Position numbers and translations under genes: made by a program. Positions 7,001 through 47,146 of a DNA stretch of 64,000 nt are shown here, one piece after another. The notes below the pieces were generated by a model. That model did no database searches. It was given only the letters and a program-made list of their open reading frames with translations, and had not been told where the DNA came from. This stretch comes from Thermoplasmatota archaeon. Lineage in GTDB: Archaea > Thermoplasmatota > Poseidoniia > Poseidoniales > Thalassarchaeaceae. The first letter of the stretch is position 1; every line of letters starts with the position of its first letter. The DNA lies in assembly GCA_030828405.1 (NCBI GenBank), contig JAURCP010000003.1, positions 73,460 to 137,459 of the forward strand, read 5' to 3'.

Positions 7001-7808
7001 CAATCCATAGATTAGTGGATGCTATACCAAGAGCCGCTAAATTCCCTGATTTCCTGTGTAAAGCTAAACTATGAACTAGAATTGTTGCGATTAGTATCAT
7101 TAACGCAATTCCAATTTCTCCAAAACTATATCCTGTTGCAGATCCTATCGCTAACAAAATCAGTGTAGATTGTGCAGCAATTGCATCATGATTGTGTCTG
7201 TAAGAAAGATATACATTAAATCCTACAAGAGCTAATAGAAGTCCACCAAGAACTTCCACAGATATTATGTCCCATCTCTGTAACTCGATTGCTAATCCAT
7301 ACAATACTTTCATTGATATTATAACCCAAGTTATTCCTAACAAATGAAGGTTCTTTTTCGGTATCCAAGTTTCTCCAAAAATAAATCCCATTGTTGCTAA
7401 GAATAACAATAATATCGTAGCAAATAATGGTTCTAGAGCAATTCCTGCTGCTACACTCACACCAGAAAATAATAGAATCATAGATGCCATTAGTGCCCAA
7501 TTGACTTTCCTTTCTCCATCTTGTGCTAAGTTAGTTGTTAAATCCGCTTCAGGCTTATTGACTACCGTCCCATCTCTTCTAATACTTCCTGGGGATTTTT
7601 CATCTAACGGTGTGAATGGATCAAAAATATCTCCCAATGCTTCATCAATTTCCTGTGTGCCTTTTTCAGGGTCTATTTCCGGTATTTCATCAGGAATTAT
7701 TATGTCTGCCAATTCTACAGAGTCACTAATCTTGAACGCACGTTCTCGAATAAGTTTATCATTCGAATCTTCGGTACTCACAGTATGTCTGAAAGGTATT
7801 GGTGACAT
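4044..7808 (-). CDS. Very large polytopic integral membrane protein, unknown function (~1254 aa, roughly 30 or more hydrophobic helices)
   Basis: Uninterrupted 1268-codon ORF. About 115 aa of acidic cytoplasmic N-terminus, then near-continuous TM segments. One Lys/Arg-rich loop lies mid-protein (KKSKVANLSTGKIQNIDARLLDIKNKRKKSREMRD). I prefer the ATG at 7808 (GGGGAT 8 nt upstream, ATATATAT about 40 nt upstream) over the ATG at 7850. Confidence 0.75.
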   Translation of the reverse strand: MSPIPFRHTVSTEDSNDKLIRERAFKISDSVELADIIIPDEIPEIDPEKGTQEIDEALGDIFDPFTPLDEKSPGSIRRDGTVVNKPEADLTTNLAQDGERKVNWALMASMILLFSGVSVAAGIALEPLFATILLLFLATMGFIFGETWIPKKNLHLLGITWVIISMKVLYGLAIELQRWDIISVEVLGGLLLALVGFNVYLSYRHNHDAIAAQSTLILLAIGSATGYSFGEIGIALMILIATILVHSLALHRKSGNLAALGIASTNLWIGMHALTEGFSIGSLRILPFDEPLLLFVLIIVISGINASMAARFAKDDNWFSKAFKALGLGEPGLWGVSVSLGMIGALMAVGANRQDVGYALGLIAILASSFGGSYLVVRGINPRRVSTPLLISGILMTIFLIINETENLLTFDSYEIFAITGMFLTGFVMIRDQNSVTDRVLWTGSIGVLLLLVVMIPADQSSGSSLCLSNCIDGDGGTLLLSALSLVHIGTGYLAIKRSSPSLGGVTVILPWTWIMIEEILEEAIRTLIVANGNTDPGSIIHLEPFPLLGYFSISSLLMVIVNYRLGDNGVNIASKFLGVTEISAAIRDSGLLQLWSIGLWLPIITITFMANFGGFTAVTILITLGIITLLHLISELKKQRIGNSTVMLTTLAIGYLIVQWQFGLEEILMIIYCLAAGFLFYNNEENKDGIYSVGMTLMGLPMLVSLISRGQNELIDTDIIPQLGIEKVSLICTIIIIFSYLIKINKIEKLLNPSLASLWLLTINISLVYTKGGFSELMIALALFAVSAIWMVSNGEVRREIKSIAKRDNLKVLAQKKSKVANLSTGKIQNIDARLLDIKNKRKKSREMRDTDDLEELYLTDATHKPVIILLILGLVIVSSSIITFIGGVNQLLLLVSGIFISILILIARQRTKNLELDLPHFLGIEMPIAIAICGVVLIQVSGHLSPGMSNLELFDMAIMALLVFLLCIISLMNQKNLMERVAIAVDWFIIPIFIGRLIGAILYESLPAPLSVNPTKGDFVEWILPWSILETLLILSVILLSWLEIKRQKNHKEATKNNSIRAIAIVFISTGPAGLLAITLTLFHTIKNEQVSELGFIVPAIIFPIISISNMIPSIDGFGDKITLIIGLLSLLLCALSVPMKKEIWTMVLAIDAHLMLYTGILWTGLFTTIYLPIIMISMSTVVWVVGILQLRRVLRVWGLFDLLIAIIASLLVLGSTILNPSILLISLIVLAAELGFVTWLSLSNEEELIKD

Positions 7809-7897
7809 AATCTCATCCCCTTTTTCATTAACTCTCAGATATATATTCATTATATCTCTACATAATGATTGAAAAGTGATTCATATTGTCAGTGCCC

Positions 7898-11994: not shown

Positions 11995-14900
11995 ATGGGC
12001 ATAGCGTATGATTCAGTTTCTGGCTCTCAGAAACGGATGGCGATGGTGTTAGTTGCTCTGATGTTACTTCTTCCGTGGTCGTCATTTGAATCTACAAATC
12101 TAGAAGAAAATTCAGATTTTATGAGTACAATCCCCGGTGCTTGGGGCGCTGGGGGAAGTAATGATACAGGATGGATTGAATTATCTGCAGAAGGTGCGAA
12201 TCCATCCAATGGAACCTATGCATATGGGGATTTATTTCTCGATTTTGCCCCCGGTGCTTTAATTGATAATATGACTTTTGAAGTAAAAGTTAATGGTTCA
12301 GATGGTTTGTGGGCATATGAGCCACAGATTACACTACTGGATACTCAGACACCAATACTTGATTGGACTGAATTAGGAGGATTCGGTATGCAAAATTCAT
12401 TTTCTGAGAATCAACCAGAGGTTAATTCGGCAGGGATTCTTGACACTCGCTTACGACCTAATTCCATAAGTGATACAAGTTGGCAGTTACCTACTGGGAT
12501 TTCTATAACAGATCTAGTCATGGAAGCTTTACGCCCAGCAGATCCAAAGGTTTCCTTTTCATCTTTAGACATTGAAATATACGATAGTGCTGTAAATCCA
12601 GTTGATGGTAGATTATACATCCTACTGGGGGATGACCTACTACATTTAGATGACCAAACATCTACTTTAATTGTAGATATTGAATCTGATGTATATGGCA
12701 GAAGTCTTGCAGTAGATGAAACGAGAAATCGTCTTTTGATAGGAACTTCCAATGGAACAATATTACAACGCAGTCTTTCCGATTCTTCCATCATGGAAAC
12801 ATCATTAATCTCTGATGCTCAAACCTTCGACGCTATCACGGTTGATGATTACGGTACAGTTTGGGCAACCTCTGGATGCAATGTTTACTACACCAGCGAT
12901 AGTATTTGGGAATCTTACTATTATTGCCCTGGAGGTGCCGTTAAGACAGCCACTGATATAGTATCCACAGGCGATGAAGTCTACATTTCTACATATCAGG
13001 GTCTCCATTTCCTAGGTTTTTCAACATCTCCTGGAGTTAATGGAACCTTAGTTTCAGTAGATAGCAATGTGCTGTGGAATACAGGCAATTTCTTAAGTTC
13101 TGATAAAATAAACGATTTACAACTATTAGGTTCTCAATTATTGATTGCAACAGACAATGCAGGGATAGACAGGCGTAATTTAGCTTCTAATTCTTGGATG
13201 GCTACATGGTCAACCAGTAATTGGTTAGCCTCTAATCAAGTCATTGGTTTCGGCCTTACTGAAGGTTGGCTGTACATCCTCGCTGCTAATACTGTACACA
13301 CATATGATACCAATGCACTTTTCTTTTCATCACAGAGACAACTAACAGATTTTGATTTGAAAGAAAACGGTAATGAGATAATTTCTTGGCCTGATTTGGG
13401 CAAAGCAAGAAATCCATATCCTGGACTGGTTTTGGTAGGTGATGGTTCTGGTGTATTGGGCCGTTTAGTTGGAGAAATTAATGACGGAACAGAAACTCTT
13501 GTTAGTAGCCCTTCAACAAATCAAATGAATCAGGTAATATTTGTTGATGATTATGAAGAAGGAGAAATCTGGGTTTCAGGAGGGACCATAATAGATAGAT
13601 TTGATGAGGCAACTCAAACATGGCTTTCTCCAATTGATATTTCAGATTATGTAAGTAACCCCTTCCAAATAACATCGTTTGTCCAGGATTCAGATGGATG
13701 GGTTTGGGTTGGTACAATAAACTCAGGAATTCTGAGACTGGACAATACAGATGCATCGTATATGGGCACAGTTCAGGGCATTGCTTCTAATGCAGTTAGA
13801 TCTCTATCACATGACTCGTATACTGAAATCTTAGTAGTCGGGCATTATGAAGACGGGCTATCATTTGTCAATACATCTTCAATGACACTTTCAGATGTTA
13901 TTACTGAGCAAGATGGTTTAGATTCTGATTTTATCAATGATGTCGTAACTAGGTATGGTGTTGCATATATCGCTACTCCTGACGCGGGTGTTATGAGAAT
14001 TAATTTACAAGAATTATCTATTTTGTCATCTTGGCAATCTCTTGGTGCAGATAACTTAGAAGCCGCCCCAATAGCAGTCGACCAAGATATAATTTATTTT
14101 GGATTAACAGGATTTGGAATTTTATTGATTGATAGACATACTAGTGAAATTATTGATATTTGGGATGCAGATGGAACTAGTGGTTTACCAGATAATGATG
14201 TACTTTCTCTCCATCTTGACTATTATGGCGGTTTAATTATTGGTATGGAAGTACCTAATTCTGGCGGGACGTCAAATCAAGCAATGGCTAGATGGGATGG
14301 GTCTAATTGGGAATATTTTGAAACAGATGTTCCAGGTGGAAATAATGATCCATTCAAAATCAATGATATCAAGAGTGACGCAGACGGAGTAGTTGCGGCT
14401 ACTAACCGAGGAGTTTGTACTTGGACGGGTTGGACAATAATTCAAGGAAACATATACGAGTGGGATGAATGTGTTTCTCCAATGAATAATTCTGCGCGAT
14501 TCAGTGAGACTTTTTCTGTAGAATTAGTTCCTCTTAGTAGTTCTCTCTCCGAAAATTGCTGTACTCGAATATTAGCAGGTCATGACGAAGGTGCATCTTT
14601 GATAAATCGAAATACAGGATTATCTGTTGTAGAAAGATGGACTGCAGGAGATGATACACAAAGAGCTAGGGTGGTAAAAGTACAAGATATATTGTATATT
14701 GGTTTCGAGAATACTGGTATAGGGAGATATAATCTTACTAGTCAGGAATGGCTTCAAACATGGGATGGTGATCAAGGATATATCAATGATGATGACGTCA
14801 CAGTTCTAATTCCTGGACATATTGAAAATACAATATGGGCGGGCGGTGATTTTGGTTTAACTCTCATCGATGTAGTAAATGATACAGTGCTAATAGCTTG

Positions 14901-17900
14901 GAATCGTGGTTCAAATTCTGGTGGTCCTACACTTTCTAACTCCGCACCACAAGATGTAATAATAGTTGATGATATTCTGCATTATTCAACTCAGAGATCA
15001 ACTGCATGGTGGCAGTCAAATGATCAAATCTGGAGAATCAATTTAACTTCTAATTCTAGTGAATCTACTATTGATGTAGGTCAAGAATTGGGTTGGGAGG
15101 GTAAAATTCACAGTTTAGGGCATGTTTCTGAAGAACTTTGGGTCGGAATTAGGCCTACTCAATACTGGAATCAAGGTGATGGAACGATTGCTCGATGGAA
15201 TATTACTAACGAAACTTGGGAAACTCCTCTAGATACCATAGGTAGTGTTGAGAGAGTGAATGCTCAATTCCTTGGTGAATGTTTCCCAATTAATGTTTCA
15301 TCTTGCGAGTTATGGATTGCATATGGCGATAACATATTGCGTCGTTTCTCAGCACAAACAATGACATTGCTTAATGAATGGACAGATATACCCGGACCAA
15401 TCAGAGGAATAGTTGAATATCAGGATGATTATTTATTTGCAAGTATGGATGGTATTCTACGTTGGGAACCTGATAATGAAACATGGTTAGACCCATGGGT
15501 TGTTAACGATGGATTGCCATCAGATGCAAATGACGAATTGTATACAATGATAACTGTTGGAGAAGATCTGTGGGCAGGAAGTTATAGCGGAGGAGGAGGC
15601 TTCAATACCAATTCAGAAATTATCCGTAAGAACGGTACTACAGGTAACTGGACAACATGGAATTTGGGTAGTGCAGGAATTCCTAATGGTTATACTGCAG
15701 ATATTGAAGTTTGTGATGATATTGTACACATAGCCGTTGGAGCAGTCAATTGGTGGGGGAATCAAGGCGGTATTGCTCGTTACGACTTAGCAGATCATGA
15801 TTCCGATGGAATTACTGATGAATGGATTACTTCCATCCTGACCTCTAATGGTCTGGCGGATAATGACGCTCGCGCCCTTGCTTGCGACGAAGCCAATAGA
15901 ATAATGTACGTTGGTTTTGATGAAGAAGGAGTAGGAATTGACAGATATAATTACAATACCGATCAATTTTTATCTACTCTAACAAATTCTGCAGATGGTA
16001 TTTCAGAAGATAGAATATTCCCTGGAGGTATGCTGCACGATGGAAATGTATTGTTAACAGCGCATCAATTTGATACGACAGGTGGTATTTCTAGGATCAT
16101 TACCTCTGGGACATCTACTTTGAATGGTCAGATCCTCAGTCCTGGGATGGATGGTTGCTCAATCGTTAAAGCACCTTCATCAACAACTCCTATCTATGCT
16201 ATAGGGCGCTCCGGACAAACCTCAGGAGTCAATAGAGTTGATAGATTAGATTCTACAGGTTTGATAGAAAGTGGTTTCGATGAATTAACAGGGCTAACAA
16301 GTGGTAAGATACTAAATATTATTTCCAATGAAACAAATATTTGGGCAACATCAAGTTTAGGTTGGAATTCATTTTATGCATCTTCTGTATTACAAGGAGA
16401 GCTTGTTAATGGTGGCGTTAGGTGGCAATATGGATATTCATTTGATGGCGATATTATCAATGATATCAAATTAGATGGAGATAAAATATGGGTGACTACT
16501 GCAGGCAGTGGTTTGTATAAAATTGACACAATACAGCGAACCTTGACACCTACATCCTCAGCTCTCCACTCACAAATGGATGGAATGCATATTGACGATG
16601 ATGGGATAATGTATGTAGGACTAATGGGTGAATCTGGGACCTCTGCAGGATACCAATCGTTCAACACTAATACTGAAAATTGGGGTCAAGGCAGCCTAAT
16701 AGCAGGTTTACCAAGTAATATTGTTAGAGACTTCCTAGAAGTAGGCAATCATGTATTGATTGCAACTAATGGAGGTATAGGTATGTACAATATGACAAGG
16801 AGTGGATGGGATTCTCCAATCACCTCTTATGATGGTCTCCCATCACCAGTAGTTGAGCATTTAATGCTCTTAGAGGGGCCGATACAAGGAAACGGTACAA
16901 TATTGGCAGGAGGATTAGCAGGTATAACAGTCCTTGAAGAAGGAACTTATTCAATACAGAATACCATAGATTATTCTGACGGTTTAATTGGGAATCGAAT
17001 TTCAGGAATGTTGTTTGCAGACTCTGTAACTCGAGAGGTAATAGTGGGTAACTCTACAATTATCCAACATCATAATGCGTCAATATTCATTTCTCATAAT
17101 GGTCAAGGTGCAACAAGACCGGGTGTTGCTGCTTGGGATATTGATACAGATACTCAAAATGGAACATATCTAATAGATATGATACCAAGTAATAATGTTC
17201 TGAGTTTAGCTGCTGATTCTTGGGGCGTTCATGTTGCTACAGACATTGCTCCAGTAGTACATTGGAACGGTACAATGGGGCAAATGGAAGCAGGCACAAA
17301 CCCATCTAATCTTTTATCATGGCCACCTGTAAAGATGGTTTCGAACGGTAACTATCTAGTCCTAATAGGCTCTGGCGGAATTAATCTTTTAGATGTAGGA
17401 AATTCTCACTCTGTAATTGCATCAACTTCAGCATCGGGATTCAATAATGCATTTATTGAATCTAATTCTCTATATGTTGTTGCAGAAGATGGGCTTCATG
17501 TTTGGGAAGGAAGTTTAATTGAACAGCCACGAGAATATCAAAGAAGAGCGGAACCAATTTATTCTATATTTGGCGGTAGGCAATGGGATATTACATCAAC
17601 AACTCATCCAGGTATGTCTACGGTTTTAGTTAATTCTTCGGATCCTCTGTCAATTCCAAATGATTCTAATTCTCTTCCAGGAATTTTACCTATGTACAAT
17701 GGAGCTTTGACAATCACAAGTCCAGTTACCTCATCTAATGTCTGGGCTCGTTCTGTTTCTTTGAATTATTCTGGCTCATGGGATTTAGCAGGAAGAAACC
17801 CTGCAATCGAGGCAGGATTCCAAAATGCTATTTCCAATGTAGGACCGGGCTCTAATTCAGTAGAATTACATGTACAAATGCAATCTCCAATGAATGGCAC

Positions 17901-20577
17901 AATTAGTGTTAGAATGACTTATGATTGGGAAAGAGTGGAAGTTCCAACAATCCTGACATCTTTCAATAATCGTGGAAATGATGGTGGCGGAGTTCTTGAG
18001 GCTACATGGTTACCATCCGAAGATGCAGCATGGTACGGATATAGAGTCTATATCTGGGATTCTACATCTAACCCTGTATGGGAGCCCAATAAACAAGAAT
18101 TAGAAGATTTCGCAGGATATATGCATGTTCCATTTTGGTCTCAAACTTCAGCCACAATCACTGAAGCAGATCATAATGGAATTATGTCAACACTGGTAGA
18201 TGGCAATAAGTATCGGGCGGCAATCGTTACAGAATATGCCGATGGTTCAATTGGAGAGCCTATGTCATGGCCTTTCAATGCAACTCCAATTGACGAAGTC
18301 CCATCTCCTCCTGAATGGTTGACTGCAAATCCGATTTCTGGTGGTACAGCTGGAACCATTTACGCTGAATGGTCTGCATGTACTGAAATGGATCCTTCCA
18401 AGACTAGGCTCTGGGCAGTTGAACAAGAAATTACAAATGCATTAGCATTAACAAACAATTTTGATATCTCAGCAATTTCTGGAAATAATACTGTTCTACA
18501 ACTAAATCCTGGTTCTACATATTGGTTCGCTGCTGTTTGTGTAGACGAAAGTGGTCAATCGGATCTACTTAATGCCACTATAGTTGGTCCAATAGTTACC
18601 GCCGGAGGGCTTGATGACGGCATTCCACCGATGCCTATTGAAGGAACCACTGCTATCGACGTTCCAGATGATGAAGGAGGGCAAATACAAGTTTCCTGGA
18701 TCCCAAATCAAGAAGATGATTGTACATTCTATACTATATTTGCACTACCTGCTACAAGTTGGCAACCACCGAACAATGTAGATGGTTGGCCTGTTTCATC
18801 ATATGTTTCAGATTGTTCAACCAATTCAACAATTATTTCTTCATTTGGGGAAGCTCCTTTCTTAGATGATACGACTTATTGGATAGGTGTCGTTGCTTCA
18901 GATGATTGGGGTAACCAAGATTTTAGCAACGTATTGGTTGTTGAAGCAACTCCTCAATCTAATAATGGCGGAGTAGGCATACCTCCAGCCAGAGTTGATG
19001 GCTTAGCGGCGTTCGATCATCCTGAAGATGACGGAACCGCTATTGATATAATTTGGAATAGGTCTTTGGCTACCGATTTCTCATTCTACACAATCTGGGT
19101 TTCTGATTTCTATCAAGAAGACCTAACAGAATCTTGGAATGATTGTTCAAATTCTCCTGAATCCTGTGGACTTATAAAATTAAATCAGCAACAAATTGGG
19201 GGCGCTTTCCAACTTCGAATGACAGTGGAGAAAGCACATTATGGAGATACAATTTCTCAATCTTCTTCTTCGGCAATAATACCAGAAGTGCCACTATATG
19301 TTACAATCACTACTCATGATATTCACGGTAATGTATTCCTCTCAGATATGCAGAATTACATGGTATTGGTAATTCCGTCAGATAACAGCGGAGATATATT
19401 CCCACCTTCAAGACTTAATCCTCCTCAGTTAACAGATCGTCCATCAGATGATGGAGACGGTGTATTTGTTACATTCCAAGAAAGCGATGCTTCAGATATT
19501 TCTGAATATTGGATATTTGCAGAAACAATCCCATTTAGTTCCTTAGTAAACCGTCAACCAGCAATGATTCTTGATAGGGATGTAGAGATGCCGGTTCTTC
19601 TTCAACAATTTTCAGATGGTAGTCCATTAGCCCCTAATATCATGTTCTGGGTCAGTGTAATCCCAGTTGACTCATCAGGAAATTATTGGGATGAAGGAAT
19701 AAAAACTTCTTCAATAGCTCTGATTAATGAAAATATTCTTGACCCTGGCCTTCATATTCCTGAAATTGGCGGAATAATTGCTTATTGGGATAGCACTGGA
19801 ACTAAGATTCAAATTGAATGGGATGATAAAAACGATCCTTCAATTGAATCATATTATATTTTCTTATCTTCAATACCATTTGAAGATACTCGTGATGCTG
19901 ACACCTCTCAGAATGTAGCTAAGCCATATTCAAGTTATACATGGCAAGCAACTCCATCTGAAACGGATAATCAATACTCGGTAAATAACGAGAACTCCTA
20001 CTGGATTGCTATAGTTGGATTTGATGGGGAAGTTCACCGTCTTGCAGTTGATCCTCTAGAAATACAACCATGGTCTGAATCTGCTTTTGGTTCTGATAGT
20101 GATGGTTTGGGTGATTCAGGCAGTACTTGGATTAATCAATTAATTGATGGTGATATGAATATGATAATTGCTCTAATTTCTGCAATAATGATATTATTTG
20201 GTGGAGTATTAGTATTGAAACCTAAAGGTAGGTCTGCACCACAGCCATGGGAGATGGGAACCTTAGAAGTCGAACTCGAGGAACAAATGTATGACGAAGA
20301 TTTCGGAATGGATGACGATTTTTCAGCAGATGATTCTATACCTGAAAATGTAGAAAATGTACCATTCGAAGAACCCGTAAATATCGATTCTTTAACTCCA
20401 ACCCAATTAGATAATGAAGTTATGGATGAATTACTTGTAGATGAAGAAGAAATTGATTTAGATGACTTAAGTGACTTAGCAGATGACTTTGATTTGGACG
20501 ATCTCGATGATATGGCTGAAGAATTAGCAGATATAGAAGATGATATCGATACCTCTTTTATTGATGATATTTTGTGA
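11995..20577 (+). CDS. Giant surface protein (2860 aa): signal peptide, many beta-propeller (Reg_prop-like) blades, six FN3-like modules, C-terminal TM anchor, acidic cytoplasmic tail
   Basis: Single uninterrupted ORF. N-terminal hydrophobic MAMVLVALMLLLPWSS. Recurrent blade motifs such as DSDGWVWVGTINSGILRLD, DGDKIWVTTAGSGLYKID, ANRIMYVGFDEEGVGIDRYN. Repeated modules with (D/E)DGG..I.V.W......Y.I. TM MIIALISAIMILFGGVLVL at about 20155-20220, then a D/E-rich tail. The start could also be the ATG at 12037. Confidence 0.9.
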   Translation: MGIAYDSVSGSQKRMAMVLVALMLLLPWSSFESTNLEENSDFMSTIPGAWGAGGSNDTGWIELSAEGANPSNGTYAYGDLFLDFAPGALIDNMTFEVKVNGSDGLWAYEPQITLLDTQTPILDWTELGGFGMQNSFSENQPEVNSAGILDTRLRPNSISDTSWQLPTGISITDLVMEALRPADPKVSFSSLDIEIYDSAVNPVDGRLYILLGDDLLHLDDQTSTLIVDIESDVYGRSLAVDETRNRLLIGTSNGTILQRSLSDSSIMETSLISDAQTFDAITVDDYGTVWATSGCNVYYTSDSIWESYYYCPGGAVKTATDIVSTGDEVYISTYQGLHFLGFSTSPGVNGTLVSVDSNVLWNTGNFLSSDKINDLQLLGSQLLIATDNAGIDRRNLASNSWMATWSTSNWLASNQVIGFGLTEGWLYILAANTVHTYDTNALFFSSQRQLTDFDLKENGNEIISWPDLGKARNPYPGLVLVGDGSGVLGRLVGEINDGTETLVSSPSTNQMNQVIFVDDYEEGEIWVSGGTIIDRFDEATQTWLSPIDISDYVSNPFQITSFVQDSDGWVWVGTINSGILRLDNTDASYMGTVQGIASNAVRSLSHDSYTEILVVGHYEDGLSFVNTSSMTLSDVITEQDGLDSDFINDVVTRYGVAYIATPDAGVMRINLQELSILSSWQSLGADNLEAAPIAVDQDIIYFGLTGFGILLIDRHTSEIIDIWDADGTSGLPDNDVLSLHLDYYGGLIIGMEVPNSGGTSNQAMARWDGSNWEYFETDVPGGNNDPFKINDIKSDADGVVAATNRGVCTWTGWTIIQGNIYEWDECVSPMNNSARFSETFSVELVPLSSSLSENCCTRILAGHDEGASLINRNTGLSVVERWTAGDDTQRARVVKVQDILYIGFENTGIGRYNLTSQEWLQTWDGDQGYINDDDVTVLIPGHIENTIWAGGDFGLTLIDVVNDTVLIAWNRGSNSGGPTLSNSAPQDVIIVDDILHYSTQRSTAWWQSNDQIWRINLTSNSSESTIDVGQELGWEGKIHSLGHVSEELWVGIRPTQYWNQGDGTIARWNITNETWETPLDTIGSVERVNAQFLGECFPINVSSCELWIAYGDNILRRFSAQTMTLLNEWTDIPGPIRGIVEYQDDYLFASMDGILRWEPDNETWLDPWVVNDGLPSDANDELYTMITVGEDLWAGSYSGGGGFNTNSEIIRKNGTTGNWTTWNLGSAGIPNGYTADIEVCDDIVHIAVGAVNWWGNQGGIARYDLADHDSDGITDEWITSILTSNGLADNDARALACDEANRIMYVGFDEEGVGIDRYNYNTDQFLSTLTNSADGISEDRIFPGGMLHDGNVLLTAHQFDTTGGISRIITSGTSTLNGQILSPGMDGCSIVKAPSSTTPIYAIGRSGQTSGVNRVDRLDSTGLIESGFDELTGLTSGKILNIISNETNIWATSSLGWNSFYASSVLQGELVNGGVRWQYGYSFDGDIINDIKLDGDKIWVTTAGSGLYKIDTIQRTLTPTSSALHSQMDGMHIDDDGIMYVGLMGESGTSAGYQSFNTNTENWGQGSLIAGLPSNIVRDFLEVGNHVLIATNGGIGMYNMTRSGWDSPITSYDGLPSPVVEHLMLLEGPIQGNGTILAGGLAGITVLEEGTYSIQNTIDYSDGLIGNRISGMLFADSVTREVIVGNSTIIQHHNASIFISHNGQGATRPGVAAWDIDTDTQNGTYLIDMIPSNNVLSLAADSWGVHVATDIAPVVHWNGTMGQMEAGTNPSNLLSWPPVKMVSNGNYLVLIGSGGINLLDVGNSHSVIASTSASGFNNAFIESNSLYVVAEDGLHVWEGSLIEQPREYQRRAEPIYSIFGGRQWDITSTTHPGMSTVLVNSSDPLSIPNDSNSLPGILPMYNGALTITSPVTSSNVWARSVSLNYSGSWDLAGRNPAIEAGFQNAISNVGPGSNSVELHVQMQSPMNGTISVRMTYDWERVEVPTILTSFNNRGNDGGGVLEATWLPSEDAAWYGYRVYIWDSTSNPVWEPNKQELEDFAGYMHVPFWSQTSATITEADHNGIMSTLVDGNKYRAAIVTEYADGSIGEPMSWPFNATPIDEVPSPPEWLTANPISGGTAGTIYAEWSACTEMDPSKTRLWAVEQEITNALALTNNFDISAISGNNTVLQLNPGSTYWFAAVCVDESGQSDLLNATIVGPIVTAGGLDDGIPPMPIEGTTAIDVPDDEGGQIQVSWIPNQEDDCTFYTIFALPATSWQPPNNVDGWPVSSYVSDCSTNSTIISSFGEAPFLDDTTYWIGVVASDDWGNQDFSNVLVVEATPQSNNGGVGIPPARVDGLAAFDHPEDDGTAIDIIWNRSLATDFSFYTIWVSDFYQEDLTESWNDCSNSPESCGLIKLNQQQIGGAFQLRMTVEKAHYGDTISQSSSSAIIPEVPLYVTITTHDIHGNVFLSDMQNYMVLVIPSDNSGDIFPPSRLNPPQLTDRPSDDGDGVFVTFQESDASDISEYWIFAETIPFSSLVNRQPAMILDRDVEMPVLLQQFSDGSPLAPNIMFWVSVIPVDSSGNYWDEGIKTSSIALINENILDPGLHIPEIGGIIAYWDSTGTKIQIEWDDKNDPSIESYYIFLSSIPFEDTRDADTSQNVAKPYSSYTWQATPSETDNQYSVNNENSYWIAIVGFDGEVHRLAVDPLEIQPWSESAFGSDSDGLGDSGSTWINQLIDGDMNMIIALISAIMILFGGVLVLKPKGRSAPQPWEMGTLEVELEEQMYDEDFGMDDDFSADDSIPENVENVPFEEPVNIDSLTPTQLDNEVMDELLVDEEEIDLDDLSDLADDFDLDDLDDMAEELADIEDDIDTSFIDDIL

Positions 20578-24428: not shown

Positions 24429-26108
<1,680 letters not shown>

Positions 26109-39407: not shown

Positions 39408-40259
39408 CTACTCAGATTCAGTTAAATCTACGAAATCAATGTCATTATTCAGTAAATCACTTGCATTTATTTCTTCAGTATTTTGATTTTGTTTTGCAGT
39501 AGATTTTGAAACTATAGATTCTATTTCAGATGATCTCACTTCGGTATCGGGATTTGCTTCAACCAATGCAGTAATCGCTCTTCCAAGTGCTCTTTCAACC
39601 GCTGGTGCATTTCTATCTAAAAGAGCTGCTCTAGCATCTTCTAAAGCAATCTTTGCATTATCAAGTATAATTTCTATTTCGGGGTCAGTACCTATTAATC
39701 CTTTAATTTCATTTTCAACAATTATTATTTCTTCTTCCATTTCATTCCGAGCATATTTGGACAGCTCTCTCCAACATTCTCCATGCTCAGTTAGAGATGC
39801 ATTAGTGATTTTTTCAAACTTCTTAACCCTAGATGCTTCCCAAGGATTTCTTCCTAGCGCTGCCATTATATCATGTACGCATCTTGCTCTGAGAGACAGT
39901 GGGCCAATCAACTCAATTTCGTTATAGAAGCATTTTGCCCAAAGTCCGAATCCCCAATATGATGCACTTTTAATACTAATTTTTAATTCTCCTGAAGAAG
40001 AATTGAGAACCCATTGCTGCTCATCATAATCAGGTTTTTTTGAGAATTTAGGAGGGTCATGAGGTCCTAATGAACGCAGCGACACATTTGCGATATCACC
40101 AAGAAAAACAGTAGTAGTTTTACCTTGCCAACCAATATTCCTGAGATAATTTCCTTCATCAATTCTCATTTCTGGTTCTCCAGAAATAACTTGAGCAAAT
40201 AATAAGCTACGATTTGGGTCACAACCAAGAGGTTTTTTTGGAGTAGCTCCTTCTTTCAC
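39408..40259 (-). CDS. Hypothetical protein (283 aa) with acidic C-terminal tail
   Basis: Long clean ORF. N-terminal beta-rich half, helical half, then a tail ...DLLNNDIDFVDLTESE. No family recognised. Confidence 0.6.
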   Translation of the reverse strand: MKEGATPKKPLGCDPNRSLLFAQVISGEPEMRIDEGNYLRNIGWQGKTTTVFLGDIANVSLRSLGPHDPPKFSKKPDYDEQQWVLNSSSGELKISIKSASYWGFGLWAKCFYNEIELIGPLSLRARCVHDIMAALGRNPWEASRVKKFEKITNASLTEHGECWRELSKYARNEMEEEIIIVENEIKGLIGTDPEIEIILDNAKIALEDARAALLDRNAPAVERALGRAITALVEANPDTEVRSSEIESIVSKSTAKQNQNTEEINASDLLNNDIDFVDLTESE

Positions 40260-40545: not shown

Positions 40546-41694
40546 TTATTTTATTGTTGGTGCACTTTCAGTAATTTCCTCTGTCGTTTCGGAATTCTCT
40601 GATTCTAGTTCGGCGATACTGATTGAAGACTGCGCTCTATGGTAAATTTCTCTTAAGGTCTGATCACCAATTTCTAGATACACTCTTGTCGTTGAAATAT
40701 TTGCATGTCCTAGAAGTCTTTGTATTGTTACTAAATCTGCTCCTCTCTCTAGAAGTCCGGTTGCAAATGAATGTCTTAAAACATGTGGACTTAATCTCGT
40801 CCTTGGGATATCTGAAGCATCAGCGATCCGATCCAATAACTTCTGAACAGAGCGGGGGTTTAATCTCCGACTTCGACTTGAGAAGAATAATGACCTTTGG
40901 TCTTTTTCTCTAGTACAATTTTTCAATCTAGCGTTTCTAATCGGTCTCCAAGCATCTAAAGCATCCAATGTAGCATTAGTGAAAAGCACAGTCCTATCTT
41001 TCTCTCCTTTTCCACCAATAACTAAGGCCGACAAGTCTTCTAAATCAACATCATCTAAGTCTAAATTACAGATTTCTGAACATCTCAGCCCAGTATCAAG
41101 CATCATTGTAATTACAGGGAAAGCAATAGGATCTTCAGATCGAATCGCAGCTAATCTGACCTTTTGCAAATCATTTTTACCCAATGTTCTGGGTAGTGAT
41201 CTAGATCTTGCAGGTCTCTGAATCCATTCAGGGATAGTATATCCCATCCACTTCAATAAATGTGTAATTGCTGCAATTCTTGCATTGATTGTTGCAGGTC
41301 TTAAATCTCCAATTGTGTTTAACCATGAATCAATTCTACCATTATTAGGATTGCTTCTGTTAAATAATTCTGAAACTTGAATCTCTTTAATTTCATTCCA
41401 AGACATTATTTCCTCGTTGGGTAGAGGTGTTGTTGTGAATGTTTTTGCTGCTATCACATACGATCTTATTGTATGCTCACTCTTTTTTTCTGTTTTCAAT
41501 TGTTGAGACCAGCATTCAAACCATGGCAATAAAGCCAATCGCTGAAGTCTTTGTGGTAGATTCTTTGTATGTATTAACAATTCTGCACCATTCAGATTTA
41601 ACTCTTCATTTGAGTTTGCAACAACCTTTGAGATTGTTTTTTCTTCATTCTGTTCAGTCAATTCCCTCGCCTCATCGTCGCGAACGACGCGCAT
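40546..41694 (-). CDS. Tyrosine recombinase (XerA/XerC/D-like) with ~70-aa N-terminal extension
   Basis: Catalytic-domain motifs LDTGLRCSEICNL (R), HVLRHSFATGLLERGADL (H-x-x-R), LLGHANISTTRVYLEI (H...Y). Confidence 0.88.
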   Translation of the reverse strand: MRVVRDDEARELTEQNEEKTISKVVANSNEELNLNGAELLIHTKNLPQRLQRLALLPWFECWSQQLKTEKKSEHTIRSYVIAAKTFTTTPLPNEEIMSWNEIKEIQVSELFNRSNPNNGRIDSWLNTIGDLRPATINARIAAITHLLKWMGYTIPEWIQRPARSRSLPRTLGKNDLQKVRLAAIRSEDPIAFPVITMMLDTGLRCSEICNLDLDDVDLEDLSALVIGGKGEKDRTVLFTNATLDALDAWRPIRNARLKNCTREKDQRSLFFSSRSRRLNPRSVQKLLDRIADASDIPRTRLSPHVLRHSFATGLLERGADLVTIQRLLGHANISTTRVYLEIGDQTLREIYHRAQSSISIAELESENSETTEEITESAPTIK

Positions 41695-41799: not shown

Positions 41800-42756
41800 T
41801 CATGAATCTGCTTGATTTTTTTCATCAATATTACTAGATTGATGTTTCTGATTCATCAAAGAATGATTTTCTTCATTTTTTTGTAACAAATAATTCAATC
41901 TCTTCGACACCGCTCCTGCAACATTAATCTGTGATGCTTTTTCTATACCCTCTAATCCAGGGCTAGAATTAACTTCTAGGACAAGAGCCCCTCTTTCTGA
42001 TTCAAGTAGATCTACACCAGCTATTTCTAGTCCTAAAATTCTAGCCGCTTTAATAGCTATTTTTTCGAAATCTTGATCTATTTCGATCTTCTCTACACTG
42101 CCTCCAAGATGAAAGTTTGAACGGAATTCATCTCCATTTGCCCTTCTCCTCATACATGCAACAACTTCCCCCCCTACAACCAATGCTCTGATATCTTTTC
42201 CATGAGATTCTTCAATATATTCTTGCACCAAAGGTCTCATTTCTCTTTCCAACATTTGGTAAACTAATTGACGAGCGTGTTGTTCAGTTTTTGCTAAAAA
42301 CACTCCTGCACCGTGAGTCCCTTCTGTCGACTTTACCACGCAAGGAGTTCCACCAACTCTACTAATTGCTCTATTTGTGTCTTCCCATGAAACCACTTGT
42401 GCGGTGATGGGGACTGGAATATTTCCTGAAGACATCATTTGGCAAGCAATCAATTTGTCCCTACTCCTAGTTATCCCATCACTAGAGTTCATGACAATTA
42501 CGCCCATTCTTTCAAACTGTCTGACTATAGTGACTCCTCTTCTGGTTATTGAATAGCCAATTCTCGGAATTACTGCTTCACATTCCACAGGCCACCCTCT
42601 GTAGAATATTTTTCCTCCTTTGTCATCAACTATCATTGTTAGAGATAGAGGATCCAATATTTTGACATCCCAACCAGCATTTTCTGCTTCTTCTGAAAGG
42701 CGCTTTGTAGAGTATAATTTTGGCCCACGAGATAGTATAACTAATCGAGGCCTCAT
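41800..42756 (-). CDS. rimK: RimK-family ATP-grasp alpha-L-glutamate ligase
   Basis: MRPRLVILSRGPKLYSTKRL..., VVKSTEGTHGAGV, GVDLLESERGALVLEVNSSPGLEG. Confidence 0.9.
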   Translation of the reverse strand: MRPRLVILSRGPKLYSTKRLSEEAENAGWDVKILDPLSLTMIVDDKGGKIFYRGWPVECEAVIPRIGYSITRRGVTIVRQFERMGVIVMNSSDGITRSRDKLIACQMMSSGNIPVPITAQVVSWEDTNRAISRVGGTPCVVKSTEGTHGAGVFLAKTEQHARQLVYQMLEREMRPLVQEYIEESHGKDIRALVVGGEVVACMRRRANGDEFRSNFHLGGSVEKIEIDQDFEKIAIKAARILGLEIAGVDLLESERGALVLEVNSSPGLEGIEKASQINVAGAVSKRLNYLLQKNEENHSLMNQKHQSSNIDEKNQADS

Positions 42757-42841: not shown

Positions 42842-45163
42842 ATGAAGGAAGGTATTGAAAGACTTGGGTCATCAACAAGTCCTGTTATTATGGCCGACGG
42901 GGAGTCTTACACGTTCGACTCATTATCAAAAATGATGGTTTTTGACTTGAGAGAAATATGTAAAAAAGAGGAAATATCATCCTCTGGTAACAAAGCAGAA
43001 TTAATTGTGAGAATTCTTGGCCATTTCTCATCTGATAATGATAATAACGATTTATTTCTCGAAGAAGCACCAATAGAAACTCAACCCAAAGATTCTCTAA
43101 TTGAAGAAAAAAATGAAACTACCCGCTCTTCCAAGGAGATAGATGATGCGATAAATAGATTGATTTCTCGTGTTGAATCTAAAGATAGTTTAGTTATTGA
43201 AGATAATTCTGAAGAAAAAGAAGTAACAGAGGAATTGAAAATAGTTGAAGAAATAATGGAAGCAGAGATTTTTGAGGCAGAAATTATTGAAGAACCAGTA
43301 ATCATAGAAAATGAAGAACCTTCTTTAATTTTGGACGAAGACGACCCTTGGTCATTAGAAAATAAAGAAGTAAAAACAATTGTTGACCCCCCATCTGAGG
43401 TAAAAGAAGACCAACCATCAATGACAATTGTGTTACCTTCAATGGATGTTTTTAAGAAATATTGGCAGCAAATTTCTGCAGTTATTGTAGTAGTTTTACT
43501 GGTAGGTGCTGGAGTTGTTTACTTCCTCTCAGCGGACTCTTCGTTCCAAGCTAGGCCATTAAATTATGGAGATTCAATGACATTCACTTTGAGTGACGGA
43601 GAAATTATTCTAGATGGTGATGATATGGTTGCATTACTGAGAGATAATTTACCAGATACCGCGATCACAGATGCCTGTAATAGGTTAACAGTAGGACTTA
43701 CAGGAACTGGATCAATTTCAATTGTTGAAGGAGATTTGAATGAAATTTCCCATCCAATTGATAGGCAGTCTTCTGAATTATTAGGAGTAATTAATGCCAA
43801 AGACGCCTATGGGCGTTCTCATTTAACAGTACAACAAGAAATAATACATGATCTCGAAGTAGATCTTGAAGGTAAAACTTGGAGAGATACTAATGTATGT
43901 GGAAATTTAGGTTGGTCTTTACCGGGTAATGATTTACTGATGACAACCAATCTTTACGAAGAATTAACTGAAACAAGTCTATTAAGATCTGAATCAATTA
44001 TTTCATTTACCGATGTTGACGATACTACAACAAATGCAAATATCGTAACTTTTGGCGCCGATGGTTTTGGAAATTTAGACGATATAGCCCCTATTCTGAC
44101 ATTCCCATTGGCTCCTATTGAATTGCATAATTTCTTTGGCGATATTAAGTTAAATTCGGGAATGAATTCTGACTCAATTTCCGATTGGAATAAAGATTGG
44201 GAATGGGTAGTTGGTTCAGAACAAAATAATGCAGAACACGGTCTAGTTTACCCAGTACAAATTTCTCATTCGGAAATTGAAAGGTGTCTTGGAAGAATGA
44301 ATATCGACATTCTTGTAAAGAATGGAGTCCCTTGGGCAGTTGAACAAGAAGTTGATATCTTGATTAACAAAGATCAGAGTACTTCTGACTGTAGTTTTAT
44401 CGAAAGTGCGGCCTTTGAAGCAGCACTGCCTGAGGGAGAATTAACTGTAAGAATGAAGATGAGTATGATAACTTCCGAATCTGGTTCAAAGTCAATTTCT
44501 TGGAGTTCAACATATGCAGGTAGACCGGGGCCTGGAGAAGACAAACTCAGTACTAATGCAAAGAAAGAATGGTCAACAGCGATGTGGGATGAGTCAGAAA
44601 TCAGGTCATTTACATTAGAGGATGCAATTAGTTGCTTACGCGCCAACCATTCTAATCGGGATATTACAGTAGCAATTGATAGTGATGGATATATTTGGCA
44701 GTCTATTTATTCTCTAAATGAGGTGCAAGAATGGAATCTTTCATGGGTTCGTTCGGATGAAACATCAGGGTGGGCGATAGTTAGCCAATCAAATAATGCT
44801 TGTTCATTTGATGACGAAGGTCGTGATGATGGAGAAGTAATTTGGAACCAAGATGCCATTCCTTCAACTCACACATTAAAGAATCTTGAAGCCCGTATTC
44901 TAGATTCCAATAGATATCAAGACTTATCCTTGTCTTTGGGCGATAATCAGTGGTCTGAAGGAAGTAGTTTTGGATACAGACTTTCAGTATCTGAAGATAG
45001 CGATCTTCTTTCATTTTTACCTGGCGATCTTACAGAAGGGCAAGTAACAGTAGCAGGAAGTAGGGAATGGATAGACTCTAATCGTAAGCATAACATAAAT
45101 TTTGCAATGGATGCTCAAACAGGAAGGATGCTCGCATGGGCCGAGATAATTGGCCAAACTTAA
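42842..45163 (+). CDS. Single-pass membrane protein: cytoplasmic SAP/HeH-like DNA-binding motif, acidic linker, TM helix, ~540-aa extracytoplasmic domain
   Basis: LSKMMVFDLREICKKEEISSSGNKAELIVRILGHF (about 42920-43022) fits the SAP/HeH helix-extended-helix pattern. E-rich linker follows. TM ISAVIVVVLLVGAGVVYFL is at about 43472-43530. Start is ambiguous (ATG at 42803, 42842 or 42890); the ORF-track start at 42620 overlaps rimK and I reject it. Confidence 0.72.
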   Translation: MKEGIERLGSSTSPVIMADGESYTFDSLSKMMVFDLREICKKEEISSSGNKAELIVRILGHFSSDNDNNDLFLEEAPIETQPKDSLIEEKNETTRSSKEIDDAINRLISRVESKDSLVIEDNSEEKEVTEELKIVEEIMEAEIFEAEIIEEPVIIENEEPSLILDEDDPWSLENKEVKTIVDPPSEVKEDQPSMTIVLPSMDVFKKYWQQISAVIVVVLLVGAGVVYFLSADSSFQARPLNYGDSMTFTLSDGEIILDGDDMVALLRDNLPDTAITDACNRLTVGLTGTGSISIVEGDLNEISHPIDRQSSELLGVINAKDAYGRSHLTVQQEIIHDLEVDLEGKTWRDTNVCGNLGWSLPGNDLLMTTNLYEELTETSLLRSESIISFTDVDDTTTNANIVTFGADGFGNLDDIAPILTFPLAPIELHNFFGDIKLNSGMNSDSISDWNKDWEWVVGSEQNNAEHGLVYPVQISHSEIERCLGRMNIDILVKNGVPWAVEQEVDILINKDQSTSDCSFIESAAFEAALPEGELTVRMKMSMITSESGSKSISWSSTYAGRPGPGEDKLSTNAKKEWSTAMWDESEIRSFTLEDAISCLRANHSNRDITVAIDSDGYIWQSIYSLNEVQEWNLSWVRSDETSGWAIVSQSNNACSFDDEGRDDGEVIWNQDAIPSTHTLKNLEARILDSNRYQDLSLSLGDNQWSEGSSFGYRLSVSEDSDLLSFLPGDLTEGQVTVAGSREWIDSNRKHNINFAMDAQTGRMLAWAEIIGQT

Positions 45164-45220
45164 AACATCTAAATTTAGCAATCTGATAATTATTATAAGC
45201 GGCACATTCAACTTCCTTCT

Positions 45221-45237
45221 AAGCGCCGAAGGCGCTT
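45221..45237 (+). promoter_or_regulatory. Perfect 7-bp inverted repeat AAGCGCC-GAA-GGCGCTT ending 2 nt before the parA ATG
   Basis: Read directly. It is a GC-rich island in AT-rich DNA within the 76-nt spacer after the upstream gene's stop. It could be an operator, a terminator or a translational hairpin. Confidence 0.3.
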
Positions 45238-45239
45238 GT

Positions 45240-46184
45240 ATGTCTGCTAATGATGACAGTAATCTTCCGGAGGTTGAGAAGATTCCTCTGGTAATCGATG
45301 CTGAATTTACTGAGGAAGAAGAAATTCAAAGTCAAACAAGTAGTTTGCATGAAATGTCTTCTCAAAAAACAAGTAGACCACTGGATTTACCCTATCCAAC
45401 CCCCACTCTCGAAGGTCGTGCAAGGGTAATTACTGTAATTAATCAGAAAGGGGGGGTTGGAAAAACAACTACTGTCATTAATATTGCATCTCAATTGGCA
45501 TTGAGGGGGCATCGAATTTTAGTTGTTGATGCAGATTCTCAAGGAAACTGTGCAACTGGCCTCGGAGTTGATAAGAGTAAAGTTCAGAATACAACAAGAG
45601 ATCTTATTCTTTCTCCAGAGACCGCTATTTCTGCTCGACATGCAACTGCAGTTGATGGATTACACATGATAGTTGGAGACAGAAGTTTAGTAGGATTAGA
45701 GCAGGAAATGTTGAGACAATTAGGTAGAGAAAGAAGGCTTTCAGAAGCTCTAGAGCCATTACTTCCACATTATGATATAGTAATTATCGACACCCCTCCT
45801 TCACTAGGTTTGGTAACTATTAATGCACTTGTCGCGAGTAATGGAGTTTTAATTCCAGTACAAACTGAATATTTCGCTCTTGAAGGTCTTGCAATGTTGG
45901 CAGGAACTATAAGAGAAGTTAGAAATCTTCTAAATCCACATTTAGGTGTTGATGGAGTTTTGTTGACAATGCATGCCAGTACTCTTCTCAATCAACAAGT
46001 AGCTTCTGAGATTTTTGAACATCTTCCTGAGTTTGTAATTCGCCCAGCTATACGCCGTAATATCAAATTAGCAGAGGCGCCGAGTCATGGTGTACCAATA
46101 CACTTACATGACCCAAACAGTAATGGTGGCAAAGATTACCAAGATGTTTCTGATGAATTAGAAAAAAGATGGGGATTAAAGTAA
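45240..46184 (+). CDS. parA: ParA/Soj-family partition ATPase with ~60-aa acidic N-terminal extension
   Basis: Deviant Walker A VINQKGGVGKTTT, VVDADSQGN, IVIIDTPPSLG. Internal ATG at 45240; the ORF-track start at 45150 overlaps the upstream gene. Confidence 0.92.
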   Translation: MSANDDSNLPEVEKIPLVIDAEFTEEEEIQSQTSSLHEMSSQKTSRPLDLPYPTPTLEGRARVITVINQKGGVGKTTTVINIASQLALRGHRILVVDADSQGNCATGLGVDKSKVQNTTRDLILSPETAISARHATAVDGLHMIVGDRSLVGLEQEMLRQLGRERRLSEALEPLLPHYDIVIIDTPPSLGLVTINALVASNGVLIPVQTEYFALEGLAMLAGTIREVRNLLNPHLGVDGVLLTMHASTLLNQQVASEIFEHLPEFVIRPAIRRNIKLAEAPSHGVPIHLHDPNSNGGKDYQDVSDELEKRWGLK

Positions 46185-47146
46185 TGTCCTCTAAAGGCCT
46201 TGGAAGAGGGCTAGAATCAGTAGCAGAATTAGCCAAAGACGGGCCTGATCTTACTTCATATGTATCAGTACCAAAGTTACCTGTTGATTCTCCAAGAGTA
46301 GCAGTTTTATGGATGATTTTTGGTAGTATCTCATTTGGAACTATGAATGCATTAGTGAAATGGACATCAGTAAATGCCGATGTCTGGATGATAATTTTTG
46401 TTCGCTCACTAGTTATCGCCTTAGCAGTAGCTATTTTTGCTAGATTTCAAGGTATTAGCCTCAAAGTCAAAGATAGAAGAAAGATGTTTTTGCGATGTCT
46501 TACTGGATTAATTGCAATGTTGCTATATTTCACAGCATTATCATTAATTCCTATCGGTCAGGCAGTGACATTACAGTATACTGCGCCGTTATTTGTGGCA
46601 TTACTTTCTGGTCGATTAATTAGTGAAAAAGTGTCATCTTCAGTACTCGTTCTGCTAATGACTGCCTTTATCGGAATAGTTCTGATAGTTTCTCCTGATT
46701 TTGATAGTATTGATTCCAATGCATTACTTGCTTTGGGTTCGGGATTATTCGCTGGCTTAGCATACATTTTTGTTCGTGATTTAAGAAAAACGGAGTCACC
46801 TTCTTCTGTAGTATTTTGGTTTGCCGCTTTTTCTGTTCTTGGCTCGATGGTTCAAGCAGTTCCAAACTTATCCGCTTTATCTCTAGAAATGGTTGCTGCC
46901 TTAATAGGAATAGGGGTGGGTGCAGGAGGCGGTCAAGTAGGAATTACCATGGCTTATCATAAGGCAAATGCCGCTTGGGTTAGTGCATTTTCTTATCTTA
47001 CAGTGATAATAGCAACAATTTACGGAATTATTTTGTTTGATGAGATATTAACTCTGAAAATCGTTCTCGGAGGTTTAATGATAATAGGTTCAGGAATAGC
47101 ATTGGCATTTTTTACTCCATCCAGTTCTGAAAGTGAAAAATCTTAG
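46184..47146 (+). CDS. EamA/DMT-family 10-TM transporter carrying a ParB-type N-terminal peptide (MSSKGLGRGLESVAEL)
   Basis: The ATG shares one nucleotide with the parA stop (TAATG at 46182-46186). About 35 cytoplasmic residues are followed by ten hydrophobic helices in two 5-TM halves, typical of EamA. The N-terminal GLGRGLE matches the ParB/Spo0J N-terminal consensus. Confidence 0.85.
   Translation: MSSKGLGRGLESVAELAKDGPDLTSYVSVPKLPVDSPRVAVLWMIFGSISFGTMNALVKWTSVNADVWMIIFVRSLVIALAVAIFARFQGISLKVKDRRKMFLRCLTGLIAMLLYFTALSLIPIGQAVTLQYTAPLFVALLSGRLISEKVSSSVLVLLMTAFIGIVLIVSPDFDSIDSNALLALGSGLFAGLAYIFVRDLRKTESPSSVVFWFAAFSVLGSMVQAVPNLSALSLEMVAALIGIGVGAGGGQVGITMAYHKANAAWVSAFSYLTVIIATIYGIILFDEILTLKIVLGGLMIIGSGIALAFFTPSSSESEKS

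Follow-up and report, generated by a model that had tools for sequence, protein, structure and literature searches.

A ParB-type peptide on an EamA permease encoded beside a Soj-type ParA in Marine Group IIb archaea

Across prokaryotes, the spatial organisation of the cell is generally the work of ParA/MinD ATPases, which owe their specificity to the partner that activates them. What does such an ATPase work with when the gene that follows it encodes a membrane permease? The question is raised by a 64-kb stretch of a Poseidoniales genome (contig JAURCP010000003.1; hereafter the window) from the family Thalassarchaeaceae (Marine Group IIb, MGIIb), as the closest relatives of all three proteins considered here are also named. 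Three genes lie side by side on its + strand, encoding a SAP-domain protein with a single transmembrane (TM) helix (42890..45163), a Soj-type ParA ATPase (45240..46184) and a 10-TM EamA/DMT permease (46184..47146). An earlier note on this DNA had described the trio as a candidate membrane-anchored positioning module without a ParB, and its account of the layout is confirmed in the sequence: a 76-nt spacer holding a palindrome separates the SAP and ParA genes, and the ParA stop and permease start share one base (TAATG). It was also right that both non-ATPase parts are integral membrane proteins, the SAP protein with one TM helix and the permease with ten hydrophobic segments. On balance, we think it probable that this is a lineage-specific chromosomal par locus of MGIIb, in which a Soj-type ParA is paired with an EamA permease that displays a ParB-type activating peptide in the place of parB.

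The observations that carry this reading lie in the first residues of the permease, a 320-aa protein that matches Pfam EamA in two stretches (E 5.4e-24) and begins MSSKGLGRGLESV. Its N-terminal tail (46184..46297) holds the motif L6-G-R8-G-L10-E-S-V13-A14, to be compared with the ParA-binding motif of M. xanthus ParB, L11-G-R13-G-L15-x-x-L18-I19 at residues 11-19 (PMC12462528). In that ParB, L11, L15, L18 and I19 are needed for ParA binding and R13 for ATPase stimulation, and a 20-residue peptide suffices when DNA is present (PMC12462528). The permease motif keeps four of these five functionally critical positions across 58 species. Among these motif-carrying species, the consensus L-G-R-G-L-x-x-[IVLM] is near-invariant, with both leucines, the first glycine and the hydrophobic residue at +3 each present in 57 of 58 and the arginine in 56 of 58, while flanking positions vary freely (about 2 bits of entropy).

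The same motif opens the bacterial partners of this ParA subfamily. As comparison ParBs we took, from four bacteria, the products of the genes that immediately follow the closest Soj homologues; their matching N-terminal stretches are ALGRGLDALI, GLGRGINVFF, GLGRGLAALI and GLGKGLAALL. The N-termini are MAALKRSALGRGLDALI for ParB of P. distasonis, VAKGLGRGINVFF for Spo0J of B. thuringiensis, MAGQKKGGLGRGLAALIP for ParB of Tsukamurella and MANNAKGLGKGLAALLG for ParB of Vescimonas; the window permease, aligned with them, reads MSSKGLGRGLESVAEL. Additionally, the peptide-coding segment occupies the position of the 5' end of a bacterial parB, where it overlaps or abuts the parA stop. When the loci were scanned in six frames for [LIVM]G[RK][GNS][LIVM]xxΦ near the N-terminus of an open reading frame (ORF), the motif was found in peptide-bearing loci in the EamA gene alone, and the 26 peptide-less loci gave one spurious occurrence. 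The permease has 19 lysines and arginines on the membrane side where its N-terminus lies and a single one on the opposite side; thus, by the positive-inside rule, the peptide is cytoplasmic, as are both termini of the protein. The suggestion that the permease bears a ParB-type peptide is therefore borne out by the published motif (PMC12462528), the four bacterial ParBs and the conservation across 58 species, and the grafted-peptide permease is a well-supported candidate for a membrane-fixed activator that would bind ParA and stimulate its ATPase. Searches of the PDB and of plasmids with the bare 38-aa peptide returned designed repeat proteins only, or no match. A second motif in the tail, GPDL(S/T)S(F/Y) (46241-46261, permease residues 20-26), follows the ParB-like motif and is lost together with it; we recognised no counterpart of it in ParB.

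Apart from its tail, this third protein is not a ParB. EamA is the only domain detected in it (Pfam, NCBIfam, with all NCBIfam matches far below cut-off), and it is without Srx CTPase, helix-turn-helix (HTH) and dimerisation domains. Its body is highly conserved (77% mean column identity), with identities of about 66-98% among sampled relatives and 52-53% to the deepest clade, and it is probably a working transporter. In a tblastn search with the four ParBs and Noc, which covered the 64-kb window and 7-10 kb of locus flanks, the peptide was the only match and neither a ParB/Srx nor an HTH domain was found; no canonical parS was found in the window. Thus, the earlier description of the module as lacking a ParB holds for the window and the locus flanks, the regions that this search covered.

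The ATPase itself belongs with chromosomal ParAs. The 314-aa protein (AAA_31, E 6e-54) carries a 60-aa N-terminal extension and a deviant Walker A motif, KGGVGKT (in NQKGGVGKTTT), and its catalytic residues K70, K75 and D99, which comprise the signature lysine and Walker residues, are invariant in 80 species. Compared with the PDB, it is closest to M. xanthus ParA (8RAY, 1e-57), followed by Soj of T. thermophilus (8e-52) and H. pylori (2e-44), with MinD at 2e-16; in PLSDB records, its identity to bacterial Soj is about 45%. K276, at the position of M. xanthus R238, is a basic residue predicted to contribute to non-specific DNA binding and is arginine in 50 and lysine in 30 of the 80 species. 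The earlier note had raised clustering with MinD or flagellar ATPases as a finding that would speak against its proposal; as this ParA is of the Soj, chromosomal type on PDB similarity, that objection does not arise, and a MinD-type division-site function is ruled out by the same comparison. No NCBIfam model reached its curated cut-off with ParA, a search of a large protein database returned close MGIIb relatives only, and an AlphaFold2 model from 16 homologues was unusable (predicted local distance difference test score, pLDDT, 48). The N-terminal extension (45240-45419) contains the conserved motifs LPxV..aPLIIDvEFxE and LP..ptPxGRaR, and the C-terminus (46167-46178) an invariant RWGL. These motifs are retained with or without the permease peptide, and they could form a second partner-binding or membrane-binding site.

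How widespread is this arrangement? We surveyed one genome for each GTDB species and obtained 80 loci. All are from Poseidoniales and, where a family is named, from Thalassarchaeaceae or MGIIb, counting one locus in a bin labelled Acidiferrobacter. That locus (L062, NZKZ01000064.1) contains the full MGIIb block from integrase to EamA in a bin labelled Acidiferrobacter sp., a label that is probably a binning error. The order integrase(-), RimK(-), SAP(+), ParA(+), EamA(+) is kept in every species-representative locus with enough flank, and the ParA stop and EamA start overlap or abut in all loci. The deepest clade (L004, L088 and L089; 52% EamA identity) also has the peptide motif, and thus the motif is ancestral. 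Among 1.8 billion representative proteins searched, the permease family formed a tight clade of at least 52% identity, with the next relatives at 43% or less; the nearest of these EamA proteins from outside the clade are without the peptide, have no ParA neighbour and sit in bacterial-looking contexts, for example beside TamB.

The two conserved genes upstream, both on the - strand as the earlier note had said, encode a tyrosine recombinase of Xer type (40546..41694; Pfam Phage_integrase, E 3e-35) and a RimK-type ATP-grasp ligase (41800..42756; Pfam RimK, E 2.6e-57, and Rimk_N, E 1.5e-27). Both identifications stand in Pfam, but the recombinase falls below the curated NCBIfam cut-offs, with 177.8 bits for XerA_Arch (cut-off 220) and 178.5 bits for XerC (cut-off 335). 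A recombinase/integrase gene is found in all loci with enough flank, as a conserved neighbour rather than a demonstrated part of the system, and the RimK gene, divergent from the SAP gene, is likewise conserved in position among loci. Synteny reaches at least 7 kb farther upstream, from an RsmB-type methyltransferase gene through to integrase and RimK, deepest clade included. Downstream genes are variable: a nitroreductase gene is adjacent, displaced or absent, and a peptidase gene takes its place in the deepest clade. A recent mobile-element origin of the locus is ruled out by uniform base composition, housekeeping neighbours and synteny in about 80 species.

Further evidence comes from species that have lost the peptide. 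In about a third of species the permease N-terminus is short and without it, and these species form four separate groups on the ParA tree; in two further species the motif arginine is replaced (GLGMGL and GLGISL). The ParB-binding pocket of M. xanthus ParA is known from experiment, and when its residues are aligned with the window ParA, L150, L152, L155 and L192 are kept as L189, L191, I194 and L231. None of the 55 peptide-bearing species departs from L191 or I194. Where the peptide is missing, isoleucine has replaced L191 on at least three to four independent occasions, and I194 has become valine. Of these pocket events (n=6), five fall on peptide-less branches, and the sixth we judge to be a rooting artefact at the peptide-less L009; with that discounted, all six fall there. 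Peptide-less branches hold about 29-34% of total change, and the chance of all events falling there is about 6e-4 to 2e-3. This correlated change is the best available indirect evidence on the interaction, and suggests that the peptide contacts the L191/I194 pocket.

Other ParA positions follow a similar pattern. D291 (46110-46112; M. xanthus D253) is fixed in peptide-bearing species and has changed five times on peptide-less branches, and the columns of A87, A135, E169 and D291 are all fixed with the peptide and show 2-5 changes on peptide-less branches. These positions could mark further peptide-dependent constraints. The string 'FGLGE' upstream of some peptide-less permease genes, considered as a possible remnant of the peptide, is actually the ParA C-terminus in another frame.

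The first gene of the trio encodes a protein with an N-terminal SAP motif, an acidic linker, one TM helix and a C-terminal domain of about 540 aa. The earlier note placed its start at 42842, which gives 773 aa; the conserved start is most likely ATG 42890 (MADGESYTF..., 757 aa), because homologues begin there and bases 42848-42863 are conserved even where no ORF is open. The SAP (helix-extended-helix, HeH-type) motif, predicted to bind DNA, spans residues 28-62 (42923..43027; Pfam PF02037, E 2.2e-7) and scores 30.8 bits, above the Pfam cut-off of 23.9. In a profile of 38 homologues, residues L28, L36, R37, C40, S48, G49, K51 and R57 are invariant, and against the PDB this profile matches solely eukaryotic SAP domains (Tho1, 8.5e-4; MKL1, Ku70, Hcc-1 and SIZ1). 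The TM helix, ISAVIVVVLLVGAGVVYFL (43472..43540), has a Kyte-Doolittle peak of 2.81 with KK directly before it, and the homologues sampled have a single TM helix at the same relative position. The KK, together with the layout of the protein, indicates that the SAP motif is cytoplasmic and the large domain outside. SAP motif, TM helix and cytoplasmic orientation are kept in peptide-bearing and peptide-less species alike, in proteins just 36-45% identical across lineages. The extracytoplasmic domain contains six cysteines that are invariant across the 38 homologues, and the profile detected no relative of this domain in the PDB. Searching a large protein database with the SAP protein returned close MGIIb relatives only, and an AlphaFold2 model from 15 close homologues had a mean pLDDT of 30 and no usable fold. 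Judged from its domain layout, the protein is plausibly a direct DNA-to-membrane tether, and it may take part with ParA in a common process.

Are the three genes one transcription unit? Upstream of the SAP gene, a promoter-like motif, GAAGGTATTGAAAGAC (42848..42863), is conserved across clades, also in loci without an open ORF there, and ATTGAAAG within it ends 28 nt before ATG 42890. The SAP-ParA spacer holds a second motif, GCGGCACATTCAAC (45199..45212), which is present in nearly all of the about 80 loci, is unique in the window and is a candidate promoter for ParA and EamA; its ATTCAAC ends 27 nt before the ParA ATG. With promoter-like elements about 30 nt before both SAP and ParA, a single three-gene operon is doubtful, and the elements suggest two units, SAP alone and ParA with EamA. 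The earlier view of one three-gene module thus probably holds for ParA and EamA, whose genes overlap or abut in all loci, but probably not for SAP, which has a conserved promoter-like element separate from that of ParA. Of the 44 window genes, 11 have TT[GC]AA at -45..-18, compared with 12% of random 27-nt windows; this sequence may be a TATA-like element of this particular MGIIb lineage. Additionally, ATT[GC]AA(A)/TTGAA recurs about -28 to -36 of many starts, for example at 42854-42861 and 45206-45212.

The palindrome in the spacer, AAGCGCC-GAA-GGCGCTT (45221..45237), ends 2 nt before the ParA ATG and could form an RNA hairpin of -11.4 kcal/mol. Roughly half of the species have kept the stem, with one compensatory A-T/G-C change, around a loop that varies; in other clades it is absent. 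The palindrome could act as an operator or as a 5' hairpin; a repeated centromere is ruled out for the window, in which it occurs as a single copy.

The locus shares features with several known systems and departs from each. With bacterial ParABS (Soj-Spo0J) it has in common the ParA subfamily (about 45% identity), a gene order in which the gene for the partner overlaps the stop of parA, and the motif L-G-R/K-G-L-x-x-Φ at the N-terminus of that partner. Unlike in ParABS, the partner is a 10-TM EamA permease without ParB/Srx CTPase, HTH or dimerisation domains, the locus is archaeal with no parS found in the window, and the ParA is extended by 60 aa at its N-terminus, with an arginine in place of the invariant arginine-site tyrosine. 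In orphan ParA/MinD systems, such as McdAB of carboxysomes, PpfA-TlpT of chemoreceptors and PomXYZ, an adjacent non-ParB partner stimulates the ATPase via a short, positively charged N-terminal peptide (PMC9178275). The MGIIb locus likewise pairs a ParA-family ATPase with an adjacent non-ParB partner; however, the partners in those systems are soluble or peripheral and their peptides have diverged from the ParB consensus, whereas the MGIIb partner is an integral polytopic permease with a near-perfect ParB motif. Archaeal SegAB and pNOB8 ParA-ParB-AspA also combine a ParA-family ATPase with an adjacent partner gene, with SegB and AspA acting as soluble, site-specific DNA binders and the centromere adjoining the operon (PMC12139799, PMC9178275). 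In contrast to SegAB, the MGIIb partner has neither the SegB signature motif nor an HTH, its ParA is nearer to bacterial Soj, and the sole palindrome near the operon is single-copy and clade-restricted. That the module differs from both SegAB and ParABS, as had been proposed, is therefore correct, the partner being an EamA permease with neither the ParB/Srx domain nor the SegB signature motif.

Capture of ParA or tethering of DNA by membrane proteins is familiar from TipN, HubP, Noc and the eukaryotic HeH/LEM-SAP proteins of the inner nuclear membrane, and the layout of the SAP protein, an N-terminal helix-extended-helix DNA binder with a TM segment, resembles that of HeH/LEM proteins. Homology to these tethers beyond the SAP motif was not detected when its profile was compared with the PDB. 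To our knowledge, none of TipN, HubP, Noc or the HeH/LEM proteins has a ParB-type activating peptide on a transporter. We found no description in the searchable literature, and know of no case, of a canonical ParB activating peptide on a polytopic membrane transporter.

If ParA and the permease work together in this locus, ParA-ATP dimers would bind nucleoid DNA non-specifically and be turned over at the membrane, so that the nucleoid would be transiently tethered to the permease or to anything clustering with it, or the two mutually positioned. Physical binding, ATPase stimulation and any positioning role are inferred; the shuttling and positioning mechanism put forward in the earlier note is purely conjectural. 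Several observations weigh against the pairing of ParA with the permease peptide. For ParA to be activated efficiently, each dimer has to engage two peptides side by side (PMC12462528), and a monomeric permease presents one only. The permease body is conserved as in a working transporter, which has no evident reason to be coupled to ParA. On the ParA side, two of six hydrophobic pocket residues differ (M. xanthus V116 is Q155 and L187 is E226), leaving four kept, and of the arginine-binding cluster Y81/E82/D110/E117, which corresponds to R120/D121/S149/E156, two of four are kept, the otherwise invariant tyrosine Y81 being arginine and D110 serine. The pocket substitutions that accompany peptide loss are conservative, and the events are few. 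Counted as irreversible losses on the ParA tree, the peptide events number six among 80 species, four deletions and two arginine mutations, and ParA in peptide-less species is intact and under purifying selection (core entropy 0.33 bits, compared with 0.43 in peptide-bearing species). Thus, ParA is not strictly dependent on the peptide and has either a peptide-independent function or another activator. A six-frame scan found no relocated motif within about 7 kb of the locus in peptide-less species.

These difficulties might be taken to mean that the peptide is a functionless leftover of a parB::permease fusion, with ParA an orphan and the tight gene junction a reflection of shared transcription. 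The six independent losses or inactivations with ParA retained, the altered arginine-binding site and a ParA that is equally conserved without the peptide would all fit, yet ten residues without a function, lying in a disordered tail, would not have stayed near-invariant (56-57 of 58 species, with neighbouring positions at about 2 bits). The motif has been kept even though the SAP proteins have diverged to 36-45% identity across lineages, and it is precisely in the species with the peptide that L191 and I194 never vary. For these reasons we regard a relic as decidedly unlikely. More ambitious is the idea, which we also hold unlikely, that all three proteins position or segregate the chromosome at the membrane in place of ParB-parS, the SAP protein as DNA binder, ParA as motor and the peptide-bearing permease as activator. 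That the three genes adjoin on one strand wherever a species-representative locus has enough flank agrees with this, as do the conservation of the SAP motif, TM helix and cytoplasmic orientation regardless of the peptide, the absence of a ParB domain from the window and flanks and the failure to find a canonical parS; conserved short motifs in the ParA extension and the SAP linker could mediate contact. However, the separate promoter-like elements of SAP and ParA mean that they are probably on separate transcripts. The co-conservation of the triad, as the earlier note had conceived it, is real, but RimK, integrase and genes farther upstream are equally syntenic; adjacency is thus unspecific, and that of SAP and ParA is no stronger evidence than that of RimK or other neighbours. 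Additionally, SAP domains have no known sequence specificity and so define no centromere, the only palindrome is single-copy and missing in many clades, and nothing in our data speaks for a contact between SAP protein and ParA.

A third view would dispense with DNA segregation altogether and have ParA, on a nucleoid matrix, distribute clusters or a complex of the permease, as in McdAB or PpfA-TlpT. In analogy to every ParA system known, the protein that bears the activating peptide would be the cargo or its adaptor (PMC9178275, PMC12462528), the permease body is as strongly conserved as expected of a working transporter, and neither a sequence-specific DNA binder nor a repeated centromere-like site was found in the window. 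Against this, no integral polytopic membrane protein is known as a ParA cargo, a freely diffusing membrane monomer would be a poor multivalent cargo, partitioning a permease in a small cell has no obvious benefit, and a third of species do without the peptide. We therefore consider cargo positioning very unlikely. Returning to the reading we favour, a par locus with a permease-borne peptide in the place of parB, its boldest extension is that the MGIIb chromosome is segregated or organised by membrane attachment: the permease peptide would capture and switch off nucleoid-bound ParA while the HeH/LEM-like SAP protein holds DNA, a centromere-free partition machine as postulated in the replicon model. 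To this scheme we give little credence at present. As for the origin of the locus, a bacterial parAB operon was probably acquired, and the 5' end of parB, the part coding for the ParA-interaction peptide, would then have been fused to a permease gene that is also of bacterial type.

Some further features of the window deserve mention. On the - strand at 39408-40259, a 283-aa protein without a Pfam match is encoded in the same place upstream of the integrase as in distant MGIIb genomes. Farther away, a 559-aa secreted protein (24429-26108, + strand) has calcium-binding-type DxDxDG repeats flanking a (GQ)n run of roughly 90 residues, and its gene explains the spike in GC (0.46) and AT skew at 24-26 kb. 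Two ORFs are very long, 11995-20577 (+ strand, about 2860 aa) and 4044-7850 (- strand, about 1270 aa).

We know of no account of chromosome segregation in the Poseidoniales, which are very abundant and uncultured, and the locus described here suggests an unreported mode of ParA-to-membrane coupling. The repeated loss of the peptide, through four deletions and two point mutations, constitutes a natural comparative experiment. If the peptide activates ParA, the ParA-binding motif would be a module portable enough to be grafted onto unrelated proteins in evolution, and the locus would provide a concrete, testable handle on nucleoid-membrane coupling in archaea.

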